55,878 nt of DNA, taken from IMG/VR virus record IMGVR_UViG_2839610755_000009; one strand, 5' to 3'. How positions within the stretch are numbered: the first letter of the stretch is position 1; each line of letters starts with the position of its first letter. This DNA comes from a virus. Its lineage: Duplodnaviria > Heunggongvirae > Uroviricota > Caudoviricetes. Positions 1,369-54,852 of the stretch are shown one piece after another. Position numbers and translations under genes: made by a program. Under the pieces are notes generated by a model. The model was not told where the DNA came from and did not search any database. It saw only the letters and a program-made list of their open reading frames with translations.

Positions 1369-1444
1369 GCCGATATAGCTCAGTTGGTAGAGCAGCGCAT
1401 TCGTAATGCGAAGGTCGTAGGTTCGACTCCTATTATCGGCACCA
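1369..1444 (+). tRNA. thrW: tRNA-Thr (anticodon CGT)
   Basis: 76-nt sequence GCCGATATAGCTCAGTTGGTAGAGCAGCGCATTCGTAATGCG...GGCACCA with cloverleaf arms, anticodon loop TTCGTAA and 3-prime CCA. Confidence 0.9.
1399..1444. repeat. attL core of prophage (3-prime part of thrW)
   Basis: 46-bp sequence ATTCGTAATGCGAAGGTCGTAGGTTCGACTCCTATTATCGGCACCA repeated exactly at 41921..41966. Confidence 0.85.
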
Positions 1445-1458
1445 TTAAAATCAATAAG

Positions 1459-2622
1459 TTACACATCATTAGTACCTTCCTTATTTTTTGACTGGGACAA
1501 ATTTGGGACCGATGGGTTCAGGATCGAGTCTATTTGCCGTGCGTGTTCGGTAAGGTGATTAGGTGCAAGGTGAGCATATCGACGAACCATTTCGATAGAC
1601 TCCCAGCCTCCCATTTCCTGTAACACTGACAACGGGACTCCGGCTTGAACCAGCCAACTTGCCCGGGTGTGTCTCAAGTCGTGAAATCTGAAATCATCAA
1701 TACCAGCCCGTCTCAGCGCCGCTTTCCAGGCTGTGTTTGCGTCATACCGCATCTTCCTTACTGTTGGCGCTTTCGTTCCGTCTGGTTTGGTACAGCTTTC
1801 CTTGTACACAAATACCCAACGGTGATGATTCCCGATTTGTTTTTTCAATACGCGACATGCAGTATCATTCAGCGCAACGCCAATTGCGCGGTTTGATTTA
1901 CTCTCTTCCGGGTTTATCCATGCCACCCGGCGCTGCATATCTATTTGTTGCCATTCAAGGTTGATGATGTTCGAGCGTCTTAAGCCTGTTGCCAGTGCAA
2001 ATTCAACAACAGACTTTAATGGCTCCGGACATTCATCAATCAGCCTTTGTGCTTCATGGGGCTCCAGCCAGCGGATCCGTTTATTCTTTGGTTGAGGCAC
2101 TTTAATAATTGGTGCCTTATCCAGCATTTTCCATTCACGCTCTGCGGCTCTTAGTAGGGCCTTTATAAATGAAAGATGCGTAGCCTTCGTTGCAACGGAC
2201 GCTGGTTTTGGCGTGTATTCTGGAACAGGTTTCCCTTTTTTTCTGCATGCTTCTGCCCTGAGTTTCCAGTTTTCCTCATGACGCCGGTTCGTCATTTTCT
2301 GCATTGCTGAATAAATTTTTGATTCAGTAATGTCTCTTAGTTGCATTCCTGCGAAATGTTGAAGCCAGAATCCGATCCGGCTTTTGTCATCGTCCAGCGA
2401 TTTTTTATGTGCTTTCTCTTCAAGCCACCTGACACACGCTTCCTCGAACGTTATATCAGGTATTTCACCAAGTTTGCTGACCCGCCATGCTTCAGCCTTT
2501 AGCTTGTCATGGAGTTCTGTCGCCTGCCTTTTGTCCTTTGTTCCAAGAGACTGTTTAAATCTTTTACCGTTCGGCAATGTGAAACTGGCGTACCATATTT
2601 CACCTCTGCGGAAGAGTGACAT
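1459..2622 (-). CDS. int: tyrosine integrase (P22/SfV-like)
   Basis: 387-aa ORF adjacent to tRNA; C-terminal HxLRHT...Y tyrosine recombinase motifs ([22 protein letters not shown]). Confidence 0.9.
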
Positions 2623-2849
2623 TTTCTTTCCTCTGTTATGCCATCACCCGCGCTCACCTGGACAGTATGCAGCGGAGACTGAAGAGCCGCAATGCAGGCT
2701 TGTCGTGTTGTGAGGTAAGGAGATTTATTCTTAGTGGGATCTTTGCGTGTTGCCTGAAGACGCCCTGTGCGTATCCAGTTAATGGCAGTCGGTCTGGATA
2801 TCTTGAGAAAATGACAGGCCTCATCGAGTGTGAGGCTGTATGGCTCCAT
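2499..2849 (-). CDS. xis: excisionase
   Basis: 116-aa reading from internal Met ([26 protein letters not shown]), HTH-like N-terminus, overlaps int start as typical for int-xis pairs. Confidence 0.6.
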
Positions 2850-3154
2850 TATTTCACCTCTTGTTGTGACATTGTTGAAAAATGGATACCTGCTCGTTGC
2901 TGCCAGACGATCCAACCGAGAGTCATATCCCATGCCATGTATTCGTTATCGCCGTTTTTTGCTCTCCGACGATCTACTAAGTCACCGAAACGCTTTTCCA
3001 TGAATAATTCATAAGCTTCGCGTTCATCTGGTTCTACTTCCAGAGATAGGAGTGCGATTTCATAAGCACGGCGCTCAATATCGTCTCGCACGTCAAGGCT
3101 GCTGATACGCTCTTTAATTTCTTTAATCAGTTCTTTGTCGGTAAAAGTGGTCAT
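2849..3154 (-). CDS. hypothetical early-left protein
   Basis: 101-aa ORF, stop overlaps xis start (TGATG), same operon orientation. Confidence 0.5.
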   Translation of the reverse strand: MTTFTDKELIKEIKERISSLDVRDDIERRAYEIALLSLEVEPDEREAYELFMEKRFGDLVDRRRAKNGDNEYMAWDMTLGWIVWQQRAGIHFSTMSQQEVK

Positions 3155-3516
3155 TATGCTCCAGCCTCCGGTGCTTTTGGCATTACTGCCCAGTGAGTGA
3201 TATTGACGTTTTCAAGGTCCCCGACCTGAAATGTCCACTGCCATTCTCCGGTTTCTTTTTGTCCCCAGGTGTACCAGAGAGAACGCCAGCCAATTAGCCA
3301 GCCTTCTCCGTTAGCATCGAATAACAAAACACTTTCATTTGCTGGTGGCAGTTCAGTTGACACTGGTATTACTTTGTTTTCCTGTGCTGCACATTTAGCT
3401 TCAAGCGCATCGAATTTACGCACCAGGTATTCAGCATCTGTTTCATTCACTTTCAGATCTCGCGGTACACATCTCCCACGAAGAAACCCTTCCATTTCGA
3501 AAACATTCATGCGCAT
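3154..3516 (-). CDS. hypothetical phage protein
   Basis: 120-aa ORF in leftward operon, tight coupling to neighbours. Confidence 0.5.
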   Translation of the reverse strand: MRMNVFEMEGFLRGRCVPRDLKVNETDAEYLVRKFDALEAKCAAQENKVIPVSTELPPANESVLLFDANGEGWLIGWRSLWYTWGQKETGEWQWTFQVGDLENVNITHWAVMPKAPEAGA

Positions 3517-4070
3517 TTGCGTAACTCCGATAACTCGTTAAAACGTTCCATAAACATCCCGTAGGCATGGCCCGGTGCCTGTGGAATCACTTTGAACATC
3601 TCTGTTGCCGGGATACCTTCCAGTACAGGCCAGAAAGAGCCATCATCAAGCCCGAGATCGCGGCGTTCGGTTGCCAGCATAATGAGATCGGCATATTTCA
3701 CTGGCGTGCTCATAACAGGAGGTAACCCGTATTTCTCACGTATTACGGCGTCTATTTTTTCTTCCATCCGTTTATAGTCAGGAAGAAGTCGTTTCAGTGG
3801 TGCGGGGATGTCCTGGCAATATGCTTCTGTTGCATCATGCATTAAAGCTTCAAAAGCAAATTCCTGTGGCACCAGCTGGCTGCAAAGCACCGCATGTTGG
3901 GCGACACTGTAGAAGTGTGAAAGATGTCCTGCAAAGCGACAGATATTTGAAAGGGAAACCGCGATATCGTTAATAACGATGTCGTCTTTATTTATCCTGT
4001 CATAATAAAAATGCTTCCCGGAAAAAGTTTTAATAAATGACATTTTGTTCTCCACGTATATGCGCTGCAC
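3507..4070 (-). CDS. HD-domain phosphohydrolase-like protein
   Basis: 187-aa ORF with His...HD motif (SVAQHAV...LMHDATEAY). Confidence 0.5.
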   Translation of the reverse strand: MQRIYVENKMSFIKTFSGKHFYYDRINKDDIVINDIAVSLSNICRFAGHLSHFYSVAQHAVLCSQLVPQEFAFEALMHDATEAYCQDIPAPLKRLLPDYKRMEEKIDAVIREKYGLPPVMSTPVKYADLIMLATERRDLGLDDGSFWPVLEGIPATEMFKVIPQAPGHAYGMFMERFNELSELRKCA

Positions 4071-53214: not shown

Positions 53215-53221
53215 CTGACCT

Positions 53222-53242
53222 AAGACCGGCTGTGCCGGTCTT
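53222..53242. terminator. bidirectional hairpin between convergent genes
   Basis: AAGACCGGC-TGT-GCCGGTCTT perfect hairpin. Confidence 0.6.
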
Positions 53243-53346
53243 AAATCCGCTACAGGAAATTATCTCAAAATATATATCGATAAAATTTAAAAGTTATATG
53301 CTAAGGCGTCAGCGGAAAATGCATCTAATTCATTGTTAGATGATGT

Positions 53347-54303
53347 TTATTTTTGAATTGATTTAAACATCCCATCGAGTTGTAATTTATTTATGTCGGT
53401 TTTCTTTATGGCTTTAATTAAGTTTTCAATAACTTCCAAAGAAAAAATTACATCTTTCTTTTCAATTCTAACCCCCCCGTGGTGGCTGCAAGCATTAAGG
53501 ATGTCCTTTGTAATTTCAACATCATTTTTCATTAATGGTTCATAGTCCAGAGCCTCAATAACAGAAACTAAACTACCTAGCATTTGCTCTTGGTATTGAA
53601 CGTTGTTTAAATGCATTATACGAATATTAACAAGCATGAGAATATATTCTAAATATCTCCTGGCAGTATTTCCTTTCTCTTGTAAAGAATCACGATCATA
53701 TTCCTCAATACTCATGACTTCATTATGTAAAGAGGCTATTTTGTGCTCTGCTAATGAAATATTTATCGCATCCATGAGGTTTCGTGAGAAGCCTGTAGAT
53801 GTAACATGACCATTTGCGGGCCTTGTTAAAATACATGTAGTATAGCAATTTATATTTGGGGTCTGGATTGTCTCATTTACTCTTTTAACCGTTCTATAAA
53901 CGTCTACCATATAAGAACCTGAGTTTTCAAATGAACATGAAGAGCATTTTGTATTATATATTCTATTTAGAGATAACTGATTGTGATAGTATCCCTTTAA
54001 GAAAGCATATATAGTGTCATTAAACTCGACAAACACAACGGACTCAATATATATATGGAATTTATCATTGGGGTGCCACTCTAATTCAAGTCTTCTTGTA
54101 GAGTCATCAAAGGAAAAGTTTGAAATAAAATCCCAGTTACCTAAATCTATAAAATCAACGATATTTCTACCTGCACCATGGATATTTTTATTTATTAAAG
54201 TTGTGATTGAGTTTTTTATAATGTCCCAATCATGAATTTCATGATCGAATTTATTATTGATGGTTTCTTTTATTTGATTGGAAAAGTTTGAATAACTAGT
54301 CAC
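53347..54303 (-). CDS. orphan AT-rich cargo protein of unknown function
   Basis: 318-aa ORF, low GC, Asn/Ile/Lys-rich, inside satellite next to far att repeat. Confidence 0.6.
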   Translation of the reverse strand: MTSYSNFSNQIKETINNKFDHEIHDWDIIKNSITTLINKNIHGAGRNIVDFIDLGNWDFISNFSFDDSTRRLELEWHPNDKFHIYIESVVFVEFNDTIYAFLKGYYHNQLSLNRIYNTKCSSCSFENSGSYMVDVYRTVKRVNETIQTPNINCYTTCILTRPANGHVTSTGFSRNLMDAINISLAEHKIASLHNEVMSIEEYDRDSLQEKGNTARRYLEYILMLVNIRIMHLNNVQYQEQMLGSLVSVIEALDYEPLMKNDVEITKDILNACSHHGGVRIEKKDVIFSLEVIENLIKAIKKTDINKLQLDGMFKSIQK

Positions 54304-54833
54304 TTGTTAGCCTCAAAATTAATAATGAGTATTAAAATTTAATTGATATTGTCTATAAAATGTAGCGATGCAATTTTATTGCAACGAAATGATTTTTACA
54401 ACATACCATTATCGCTAAACAAAATCGCACCCATCAAATCAACTTACGTTACAATCACTACAAAGCGATTGCATTTAAATTCAAAACAGTTTTCTGTTGG
54501 GCGCATTTTTTGTTGTACTGGACTAAAGAGAAAAAATGGGGTAAGGAACAAATACCTTCCGTGCTCAAAAATTAGGTTTTTATGCACTTATTAATCAGTC
54601 AAGGTGAACAGTAAAGTGTTCACTTCTTATCAATCGTTAATTTCATATCTTTTTGAATATTAATGAAAAAAAACACAATGAGTAGTATGAACAGTTTTCC
54701 CCCAAAAAAAGTTTTTTCTGCCTTGAGAATGCGCGGAAAGCGAACGCCTTCACCAATGTGTATAGGGGTGTGTGTAGTTTAAATCTTCTATTTTAATTTA
54801 TGTATTAAAATCATTGTGTTGGTGGCGATTATT

Positions 54834-54852
54834 GGTTCCTATTATCGCACCA
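54834..54852. repeat. imperfect thrW 3-prime repeat (satellite attR)
   Basis: GGTTCCTATTATCGCACCA versus tRNA end GGTTCGACTCCTATTATCGGCACCA. Confidence 0.6.

Follow-up and report, generated by a model that had tools for sequence, protein, structure and literature searches.

The 55,878-nt stretch of DNA analysed here (the window) is the proA-thrW-yagP region of Escherichia coli O157:H7, in which two unrelated integrative elements lie in tandem, and it is 100% identical to many O157:H7 chromosomes. We are confident that an SfV-like prophage and the P4-like element Sp2 occupy thrW independently of each other, with Sp2 most likely the first to arrive and no helper-satellite relationship between them. 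In the Sakai reference annotation, thrW carries prophage Sp1 (10,586 bp) and the P4-like prophage Sp2 (12,887 bp), which we take to be CP-933H/I in EDL933; the start-to-start spacing of repeat copies 2 and 3 in the window equals this Sp2 length, and the two Sp2 elements, at the same chromosomal site, are ~99% identical. The tandem arrangement itself is already known as the long-annotated Sp1/Sp2 locus, and tandem prophages at thrW of O157:H7 are in the literature (PMC8190617; PMC9997748).

The left chromosomal flank holds proA (1-1254, plus strand, from the RefSeq annotation of identical O157:H7 DNA), and the right flank holds an annotated gene for a yagP-like LysR regulator (54979-55878, minus strand), which adjoins thrW in genomes with an empty site. 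ARAGORN detected a single tRNA in the window, the intact tRNA-Thr(CGT) of thrW (1369-1444, plus strand; Rfam tRNA, 71.8 bits). A repeat search of the window revealed an exact direct repeat of 47 nt (1399-1445 and 41921-41967, plus strand), composed of 46 nt of the 3' part of the tRNA and one T. A sequence-only reading had placed the 46-bp tRNA segment at 1399-1444 and, exactly, at 41921-41966, which is correct, the repeat being even one base longer. The first copy represents the attL of the SfV-like prophage, and its 46-bp P22/Sf-type core is identical to the experimentally defined core of SfI, SfII, SfV, SfX and P22 (PMC3636060). Within this same copy lie the 17-bp block and the GCACCAT segment recognised by the P4-type integrase. 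The middle copy represents the attR of the prophage, with its 3' end as the attL of Sp2, and the SfII and SfV genomes are colinear across the join of window positions 41966 and 1445. Both att pairs are sites read from junction sequences, and their present-day activity is putative.

The third copy has the core TCCTATTATCGCACCA and occupies 54837-54852, reading TCCTATTATC-GCACCA, with 16/17 nt common to the tRNA and one G missing. The attR of Sp2 (54837-54853, plus strand) would consist of TCCTATTATC from the element followed by GCACCAT, the putative 7-bp exchange segment. This copy had been described as an imperfect one at 54834-54852 with a one-base deletion. It is indeed real and one G short, but the GGTTC at 54834-54838 is element DNA merely resembling the T-arm, and rather than a decayed site the copy is the satellite's own half-site, carried by the element. 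When window positions 1000-1444 were joined to 54853 onward, the synthetic junction matched 948 complete E. coli genomes without a break, at 98-99% identity, and these genomes therefore show the empty thrW. Because this junction is contiguous, the inserted DNA truly ends on its right side at 54852/54853, and chance does not account for the third copy. The suggested comparison with thrW loci of other E. coli also uncovered both states of single occupancy: in 120 genomes, O55:H7 DEC5A and O157 493/89 among them, the left end of Sp2 directly follows thrW, and the right end of the prophage with the core is directly joined to the native flank in 343 genomes.

It might still be argued that decay or chance produced the third copy, that everything between 41967 and the right flank is a fixed island without a functional attR, and that the first two repeats alone are genuine att sites. 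The copy is short and one base off the tRNA, cargo genes of Sp2 are pseudogenes, and neither Sp1 nor Sp2 circularised in Sakai, with or without mitomycin C (PMC2669165). We consider this very improbable, since the right border matches the empty-site junction of the 948 genomes to the base, matching arm-type 11-mers lie at both ends of Sp2, and the integrase and alpA/vis ORFs are uninterrupted. Furthermore, the identical one-G core is kept in a different satellite with different cargo (strain S30) and in two metagenomic contigs from IMG/VR with unrelated left flanks, the left flank being different in all four copies; in one of these contigs the core follows an element with an Int 64% identical to that of Sp2. 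The IMG/VR matches are one tandem junction and one of ambiguous context, and a free attP of Sp2-type elements was not recovered.

Each element carries its own integrase, as the sequence-only reading had recognised. The P22/SfV-like integrase after the first copy is a P22-type protein of 387 aa (1459-2622, minus strand; Pfam PF00589), 90% identical to P22 Int across 387/387 aa, and the overlapping gene for an HTH protein (2499-2933, minus strand; Pfam HTH_17), at the position of P22 xis, encodes a candidate excisionase. The P4-type integrase after the second copy (42129-43310, plus strand; Pfam Arm-DNA-bind_3, Phage_int_M and Phage_integrase) is 38% identical to P4 Int over its full length (E=2e-99). 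That two unrelated integrases had used the same att site sequentially is right insofar as two independent elements lie in tandem at thrW, but the segments used appear to be separate. The P22-type core, as given by the annotation of the P22 record, corresponds to window 1406-1428, inside the 46-bp identity, and P22 attP arms align on either side of the window core, whereas the attL, attR and attB of Sp2 are mutually consistent only with exchange inside GCACCAT (1439-1445). We infer that P4-type exchange is confined to this segment at the 3' end of the tRNA gene. Candidate arm-type integrase sites are seen in ATGTGTATAGG, present as an inverted pair at the Sp2 left end (42078-42130) and once more at the right end (54756-54766, plus strand); these are three exact copies, all at Sp2 ends, against 0.59 expected at no more than one mismatch.

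The SfV-like phage integrated by means of its P22-type tyrosine integrase and the classical 46 bp that it shares with the 3' portion of thrW, rebuilding the tRNA at attL and leaving a 46-bp partial copy at attR. Strand exchange by Sp2 Int would take place inside GCACCAT, where the tRNA gene ends; because the exchange would fall there, attL would keep the bacterial GG and the tRNA would stay intact, and attR would retain the element's own one-G-short copy. Tandem occupation of thrW may thus be explained by separate crossover segments within one tRNA gene, each insertion regenerating the target of the other integrase.

Element 1 (1445-41920, 40.5 kb) is, judged by its modules, a temperate myovirus of the SfV/SfII/SfI kind, with a lambdoid early region, HK97-type head, SfV-type tail and SfV cos. 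The early, regulatory and lysis region (2849-15732; RefSeq annotation of strain 7409) contains the XRE repressor gene (5294-5986, minus strand), a replication gene with iterons detected by repeat search (7233-8174), the gene for a Q-type antiterminator (11867-12619) and the holin/lysozyme/Rz genes (14459-15732). The cohesive-end sequence TGCCCGCCCC, of SfV/SfI type and experimentally determined for SfI (PMC3636060), has a single match in the window, at 17985-17994 (plus strand) just 5' of the small terminase gene, which marks the prophage cos. The packaging and head module (18036-25325, plus strand; Pfam Terminase_4, TerL, Phage_portal, Peptidase_S78 and PF05065) encodes a P27-type TerS, TerL, portal, S78 protease, HK97-type major capsid protein (22249-23478) and connectors. 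The contractile tail module (25488-38182, plus strand; Pfam families and annotation) comprises sheath, tube, tape measure, DNA-circularisation protein, baseplate, tail fibres and an invertible fibre-assembly segment. The Mu-type tail noted earlier is confirmed as the SfV type, with a Mu-type DNA-circularisation protein and baseplate J (Pfam). Downstream lie a pin-type DNA invertase gene (38210-38764, plus strand; RefSeq pinE) and attP-proximal cargo (38825-41642; PADLOC and annotation), namely genes for a PD-T4-3 GIY-YIG protein (38825-39598, minus strand; PADLOC PD-T4-3, E=2.7e-140) and an AraC-type regulator (40423-41166, plus strand) and an IS3-family remnant (41208-41642, minus strand).

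Two identical 1310-bp copies of IS629/IS1203 interrupt the prophage in the same orientation (minus strand). Copy A (16387-17696; delimited by extent and flanks, with an ALIL pseudoknot in Rfam) has no target-site duplication and truncates the HNH endonuclease gene adjoining cos, which is annotated as incomplete. Copy B (32565-33874) has a GTA target duplication and splits a baseplate gene, which is intact in strain 7409, where this copy is absent. Through these two insertions the prophage of this strain is defective.

The Shigella flexneri serotype-converting phages SfV, SfII, SfI and SfIV share 96-98% nucleotide identity with element 1 in int, early and tail genes (int and early region, SfII, SfV and SfIV; window 25001-41966, 97.5-97.9% over about 60% for SfI, SfII and SfV), and have the same 46-bp attP core, thrW target, 10-nt cos, HK97-type head and SfV-type tail. 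Element 1 differs by its two IS629 insertions, by a partly mosaic early region (44-60% of each query covered), and by an attP slot filled with PD-T4-3, the AraC-type regulator and the IS remnant; no gtrABC O-antigen modification genes were found beside its attP. Salmonella phage P22 has an Int of equal length, the identical 46-bp core and related attP arms, but is otherwise unrelated in type, being a podovirus with pac packaging.

The 12.9 kb of Sp2 (41967-54836) are, by gene content, a P4-like satellite, with 7/7 P4-like core components (Pfam, blastp) as defined by de Sousa and Rocha 2022 (PMC8628076). Its gene set and overall map (int, hotspot, cos, late operon, ori, alpA, immunity RNA, alpha and att) are those of P4 and the P4-like family, including anti-phage cargo in the int-psu hotspot. 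This cargo is a pseudogenised Lamassu system (43314-46590, plus strand; PADLOC) with LmuA in two ORFs, LmuC intact and LmuB in three ORFs, named an ABC-three component system in RefSeq and a pseudogene in Sakai. A putative P2/P4-type cos-like region (46765-46830) was delimited by aligning it with the P4 ends and with the end of a Burkholderia phage that has its terminase and portal genes beside that end. It reads GCGCGCG, a 19-mer (46777-46795), 17 nt and GGTTTTCATGCA, with spacing equal to that of P4, and is kept in satellites of 856 genomes. This conserved frame and the identity of the 19-mer to the P4/P2 cohesive end, only 10/19, suggest a cos function; a search for a phage with the same 19-mer found none.

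The late operon (47000-48578, minus strand; Pfam Ogr_Delta and Psu, PHROG 6165) comprises sid (47826-48578), psu (47278-47829) and ogr/delta (47000-47272), whose products are 23%, 31% and 41% identical to Sid, Psu and Delta of P4 (blastp). The order sid-psu-ogr, with a single-domain 90-aa Ogr-like protein, contrasts with sid-delta-psu in P4. A candidate P4-type ori (48740-48945), at the same position as the P4 ori, has four T[AG]TTCAC iterons in 200 bp against 0.3 per kb overall. On the plus strand follow the gene for an alpA/vis-type regulator and excisionase (49512-49772; Pfam Phage_AlpA, 63% identity to P4 ORF88/Vis) and the immunity region with an Ash-family ORF (49769-50326; Pfam Phage_ASH, 68% identity to P4 ORF137), inside which Rfam matched an isrK-like RNA (49844-49921; RF01394, 71.9 bits) and a C4/CI-type antisense RNA (49990-50077; RF01695, 84 bits). 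The replication genes (50323-53214, plus strand) are a small ORF, a DUF5375 gene (Pfam; product 71% identical to P4 ORF106, its homologue) and the alpha primase-helicase gene (50881-53214; 73% identity to P4 alpha). The low-GC cargo gene orf318 (53347-54303, minus strand; GC 0.33-0.36) had no Pfam, PADLOC or PHROG match. Sp2 also differs from P4 in integration site (thrW versus leuX) and attP-attB identity (7 bp and an offset 10-bp block versus the 20-bp attP core annotated in the P4 record), and blastp detected no homologues of P4 epsilon (95 aa) and ORF151 in Sp2.

The prophage had been called helper-like for the satellite, with adjacency as the sole argument, and this label has to be withdrawn, as its capsid, terminase and cos types mismatch P4-like needs. 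For the adjacent SfV-like myovirus to be the helper, P4-type piracy would have to extend to a helper whose head is of HK97 type and whose tail is of Mu type. The neighbouring positions of the two elements at a single tRNA gene and the lack of a complete P2-like prophage in Sakai (PMC2669165) speak for such an extension, which we nevertheless find hardly credible. The capsid is of HK97 type (PF05065) and the small terminase of P27 type (Terminase_4), with no P2-specific Pfam family assigned to either, and the prophage cos TGCCCGCCCC is absent from Sp2, whose own cos frame has P2/P4 architecture. The elements have no DNA in common by blastn (best match E=0.44), and the prophage is disabled by the two IS629 insertions. 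Moreover, O55:H7 and other strains have Sp2 at thrW but lack the phage there, and same-subfamily satellites at other E. coli loci have no such neighbour in the 14-kb regions inspected. The prophage and Sp2 are thus independent guests.

Sp2 was probably at thrW before the SfV-like phage, because it is alone there in O55:H7 and sorbitol-fermenting O157; O55:H7 DEC5A and O157 493/89 are presumably early branches of the O55/O157 lineage. The order is the more parsimonious one, and the same junctions would also result if O55:H7 and sorbitol-fermenting O157 had precisely lost the phage. In the opposite history, which seems unlikely, the phage came first, Sp2 entered the 46-bp partial copy at its attR, and Sp2-only lineages lost the phage by precise excision. 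The middle copy does contain the full Sp2 target, Sp10 has been shown by experiment to use the attR of a resident prophage as its attB, at Rac (PMC2669165), and O157:H7 strains 2571 and F6321 have thrW/Sp2 without the phage, a possible loss. However, this history would need several independent precise losses, with Sp2 alone at thrW in DEC5A and 493/89. Under it, the flank right of the middle copy would initially have been native DNA, of which no trace is left.

With Sp2 resident first, the SfV-like phage would have entered the regenerated thrW, and we read the 10.6-kb Sp1 of Sakai as its recombined, deleted descendant. Sp1 and element 1 have 940 bp on the left (attL with the 3' two-thirds of int) and 4.9 kb on the right in common, but Sp1 differs in its cI/cro/O/P segment and lacks morphogenesis genes, a remnant compared with the nearly full-length 40.5-kb phage here. 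At least 67 complete genomes match at least 80% of the initial 25 kb of the window, a span that covers the left flank and the left part of this long form.

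The tRNA-Thr(CGT) gene at 1369-1444 (thrW) was the sole tRNA gene detected in the window by ARAGORN, and its chromosomal flanks carry proA on the left and a yagP-like LysR regulator gene on the right. A repeat search revealed an exact 47-nt direct repeat, composed of the 3' 46 nt of the tRNA gene and the following T, which recurs at 41921-41967 (copy 2); the exact repeat of the 46-bp tRNA segment claimed by the sequence-only reading is present at 1399-1444 and 41921-41966. A third, shorter copy at 54837-54852 reads TCCTATTATCGCACCA, compared with TCCTATTATCGGCACCA in the tRNA gene. 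Its position and one-base deletion had been correctly described before, as the comparison of the two sequences revealed; however, the GGTTC taken as its start is element DNA that merely resembles the T-arm in the alignment. Many E. coli O157:H7 chromosomes match each half of the window at 100%, and at least 67 complete genomes match at least 80% of its first 25 kb, the left part of the long form. In the reference annotation of strain Sakai, thrW is followed by "prophage Sp1, lambda-like" (10,586 bp) and "prophage Sp2, P4-like" (12,887 bp), and the start-to-start distance between copies 2 and 3 is 12,887, equal to the annotated length of Sp2. This is the familiar O157:H7 locus Sp1/Sp2, here with a long prophage, and it is already known. 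As a discovery it matters little, since the Sakai annotation and mentions of tandem thrW insertions in O157 comparative papers precede it (prophages in tandem at thrW are mentioned in PMC9997748); a literature search found no publication combining thrW, P4-like and tandem. It is a clean worked example of two elements sharing one tRNA gene, here an SfV/SfII-like prophage (1445-41920) and the P4-like satellite Sp2 (41967-54836). The new details are minor, namely a proposed 7-bp exchange segment, a core that has one G fewer than the tRNA gene and is carried by the element, a likely order of arrival, and a candidate cos of diverged P2 type.

Three synthetic junctions were built and searched in 5,426 complete E. 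coli genomes. The empty site (proA-thrW followed by the DNA beyond copy 3) was contiguous in 948 genomes (98-99%), the junction for Sp2 alone (thrW followed directly by the DNA beyond copy 2) in 120 genomes, and the junction for the phage alone (DNA left of copy 2, core and native flank) in 343 genomes. Because these junctions fall exactly at the repeats in other genomes, all four occupancy states exist in nature, which shows that the repeats are the att borders of two separable elements. In this way, the tandem integration at thrW proposed by the sequence-only reading, which had named comparison with related strains as a check, is backed by empty, Sp2-only and phage-only sites. The genomes with Sp2 alone include O55:H7 DEC5A, O157 493/89 and two O157:H7 strains (99.8-100% identity). 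Since O55:H7 and strain 493/89 have Sp2 as the only element at thrW, the most economical history is that Sp2 came first and the SfV-like phage later entered the regenerated thrW. Arrival of the phage first, followed by its precise loss in the Sp2-only lineages, is a conceivable but less economical history.

The integrase gene following the first copy (Int1, 1459-2622, minus strand, 387 aa) lies 14 nt from the core, adjoins the attP end and reads towards the core, as in integrases of P22/Sf type. Its product is 90% identical to P22 Int, in agreement with the P22/SfV-like type assigned to it before, and the int region is 96-98% identical to SfII/SfV at the nucleotide level. The 46-bp core ATTCGTAATGCGAAGGTCGTAGGTTCGACTCCTATTATCGGCACCA, an exact direct repeat at both prophage ends within thrW, is identical at every position to that established by experiment for SfI, and the same core is common to SfII, SfV, SfX and P22 (PMC3636060). 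On both sides of the identical 46-bp core, the P22 attP region can be aligned with the window, namely with the sequence preceding copy 2 and with that following copy 1, and SfII runs unbroken across the prophage joint, which is its attP (SfII 24880 and 24881 correspond to window 41966 and 1445). The phage DNA right of the core (1445-1462, TTAAAATCAATAAGTTAC) resembles the native DNA right of thrW (54853-54870, TTTAAATCAAGTAGTTAC), and a similar stretch occurs in P22, so the homology between P22-type attP and attB extends imperfectly beyond the tRNA gene.

The integrase following the second copy (Int2) carries Arm-DNA-bind_3 and Phage_int_M domains and is 38% identical to P4 Int, as expected from the P4 type ascribed to it by the sequence-only reading. 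In the native attB, ...CTCCTATTATCGGCACCAT is followed by TTAAATC; in the attL of Sp2, ...CTCCTATTATCGGCACCAT is followed by CTCAACT, and in its attR, ...GGTTCCTATTATC-GCACCAT is followed by TTAAATC. As attL equals attB left of the exchange and attR equals attB right of it, we infer that Int2 exchanges strands inside the 7-bp segment GCACCAT (1439-1445). An identical core with one G fewer terminates another thrW satellite on its right side, in strain S30 (cargo Drt4), and is also present in two IMG/VR contigs; the left flanks of all four copies are unrelated. Decay after integration was ruled out as the cause of the missing G, since four copies with differing left flanks all have this form. 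An 11-mer, ATGTGTATAGG, is found exactly three times in the window, twice just upstream of int and once 80 bp left of attR, and these copies are candidate arm-type sites, placed as expected.

The attP core of the P22 record maps to window 1406-1428, at least 10 bp upstream of GCACCAT, and the catalytic domains of Int1 and Int2 are only 21% identical. That both integrases used the same att site was thus imprecise wording: judged from these alignments, the P22-type and P4-type integrases have one tRNA gene in common and appear to cross over at separate sites. Each insertion would restore or leave intact the target of the other integrase, so that tandem arrays could form easily.

A different tandem at thrW was observed in another enterobacterium (IMGVR_UViG_2869822064_000005, proA region 79% identical), where a 12-kb element with a D5-type primase and an Int 64% identical to that of Sp2 is followed by a core with one G fewer and an Sp2-like integrase (92% at the nucleotide level). 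A search for free Sp2 attP in IMG/VR obtained two matches, neither of which was a clean excised form (one was a tandem junction, the other lay in a context behind GmrSD and tail-fibre genes).

The map of Sp2 is that of P4, with int, a cargo slot, ogr/delta, psu and sid, alpA/vis, ash, DUF5375 and alpha. Identity to the P4 proteins is 63% for alpA/vis, 68% for the Ash-family ORF (P4 ORF137), 71% for the DUF5375 protein (P4 ORF106) and 73% for the alpha primase-helicase. Pfam and blastp searches against P4 identified in Sp2 all seven core components (int, psu, delta, sid, alpA, the ash/epsilon profile and alpha, with epsilon counted via the Ash-family ORF) by which P4-like satellites are defined by de Sousa and Rocha (PMC8628076). 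No homologue of P4 epsilon (95 aa) or ORF151 was found in Sp2 by blastp; Asadulghani et al. assigned a homologue of epsilon to Sp13 and one of ogr to Sp2 (PMC2669165). The length of Sp2 (12.9 kb) is within the P4-like range of ~7-15 kb, and the gene order of P4 is kept except for a psu/delta swap. Compared with P4, the late operon of Sp2 has the order sid-psu-ogr, and its Ogr/Delta is a single-domain protein of 90 aa. Rfam detected a C4/CI-type antisense RNA (84 bits) and isrK (71.9 bits), both inside the ash region, and iterons of P4-ori type form two clusters in Sp2, one between sid and alpA and the other close to its right end.

Besides the core genes, the hotspot between int and psu (43314-46590) holds a broken Lamassu system (ABC-three component system in RefSeq), with LmuA divided into two overlapping ORFs, LmuB into three, and LmuC intact; the O55:H7 DEC5A copy retains a fused portion of LmuB (394-aa ORF) and has a stop in LmuC. 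Between alpha and attR there is a 318-aa ORF (53347-54303, GC ~0.34), for which no Pfam, PADLOC or PHROG match was obtained. Two other hypothetical genes are present in the equivalent slot of the S30 satellite, so cargo may vary at this second position as well. Between sid and alpA, 16 nt of intergenic DNA (48670-48685) are identical to part of the IS629 terminal inverted repeat (TGAACCGCCCCGG...), probably by chance (E = 0.44).

The int/early and tail regions of the prophage are 96-98% identical to SfII, SfV, SfI and SfIV at the nucleotide level, and the tail genes reach 97.5-97.9% with SfI/SfII/SfV. Pfam recognized a sheath, a tube, a DNA-circularisation protein and baseplate J, an SfV-type tail consistent with the Mu-type tail noted before, together with a P27-type small terminase, TerL, a portal, an S78 protease and an HK97-type capsid protein (PF05065). 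The cohesive-end decamer of SfI/SfV, TGCCCGCCCC, has a single match in the window, at 17985-17994, directly upstream of the small terminase gene.

A P4-like satellite needs the capsid protein, the terminase/cos system and the late-gene control of its helper. The late-promoter consensus for Ogr/Delta, TGT-N12-ACA, is so degenerate that scanning for it would not be informative. The sequence-only reading regarded the adjoining SfV-like prophage as helper-like, and this role in Sp2 propagation is nearly excluded. Its capsid is not the P2-type gpN on which Sid and Psu act, its small terminase is of P27 type, and its 10-nt cos is absent from Sp2, which instead has a cos-like frame with P4 spacing; no meaningful similarity and no detectable shared DNA were found between the two elements by blastn. 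Furthermore, the prophage is disabled by IS629, satellites of Sp2 type occur without an SfV-like phage, and the cos-like region of Sp2 has no second copy in O157:H7, being found at one place per genome. The adjacency is that of a shared integration hotspot, not of a partnership, and a neighbouring prophage alone gives no ground for reading a helper-satellite relationship. In Sakai, the sole P2-like prophage is without morphogenesis genes, and Sp2 did not circularise (PMC2669165).

The cos-like frame of Sp2 (46770-46824), between cargo and ogr, has the form GCGCGCG-N19-N17-GGTTTTCATGCA, with spacing as at P4 cos. Direct alignment of the P4 ends revealed a conserved frame and a diverged 19-mer, the candidate cohesive end CAGCCCCCCACGCCTGCTC (46777-46795) sharing 10 of 19 positions with P4; the P2/P4 cohesive end GGCGAGGCGGGGAAAGCAC itself was not found even with 3 mismatches allowed, and the 19-mer of Sp2 occurs in none of the phages of the phage collection. 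In this collection the cos-like region obtained only weak matches (E = 0.1), to Burkholderia phage ends and to no enterobacterial P2-like phage, and the Burkholderia phage end that the frame resembles has adjacent terminase and portal genes. The region is present in 856 of the 5,426 complete E. coli genomes. All sampled matches outside O157 lie within P4-like satellites, where the frame is conserved at 88-92% beside differing cargo (retron St85, IS66-disrupted) and at loci other than thrW, and the sampled satellites of the Sp2 subfamily have the sid-psu-ogr order. Because the 19-mer is unlike P2/P4 and any phage in the collection, this widespread subfamily might have as its helper a lineage, from the P2 family or elsewhere, that is not yet isolated and not resident in O157:H7, although we consider this rather unlikely.

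The gtrABC serotype-conversion genes are absent from the attP-proximal slot of the prophage (38825-41642), which is occupied by PD-T4-3, a regulator of AraC type and an IS remnant, so the prophage is a non-converting relative. The GIY-YIG anti-phage gene PD-T4-3 (PADLOC E = 2.7e-140) and the AraC-type regulator occupy 38825-41166, where Shigella Sf phages carry gtrABC. Two identical 1310-bp copies of IS629/IS1203 are inserted in the same orientation. The first (16387-17696) abuts a truncated HNH gene, and its lack of a target duplication points to a deletion beside it; the second (32565-33874) lies inside a baseplate gene with a GTA duplication, is strain-specific and is missing in strain 7409. 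With the IS629 truncation, the split gene and further annotated pseudogenes, the prophage is not intact and is unlikely to be inducible as a complete phage. Between the direct copies lie 14.9 kb with the genes for packaging, head and tail, and recombination between them would remove the entire morphogenesis block. Prophage decay in O157 is recorded at this locus by the IS629 insertions and the dead Lamassu system.

Sakai Sp1 shares with the prophage no more than 940 bp at the left end and 4.9 kb at the right end, and its cI/cro/O/P block is different; Sp1 is therefore a relative of this insertion that has undergone recombination and deletion. A simple deletion of the prophage mediated by IS629 was ruled out as the origin of Sp1, which has ~4.7 kb (cI/cro/O/P) absent here. 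Within the replication-initiator gene of the prophage (7233-8174), six tandem repeats spaced by 15 bp and similar to TCAAAATCTGAC (7521-7643) are presumably origin iterons. A pin-type invertase beside oppositely oriented tail-fibre-assembly genes (37305-38764) looks like an invertible host-range segment, by analogy with e14, Mu and P1, and this segment is ~90% identical to a P2-like phage from O157:H43.
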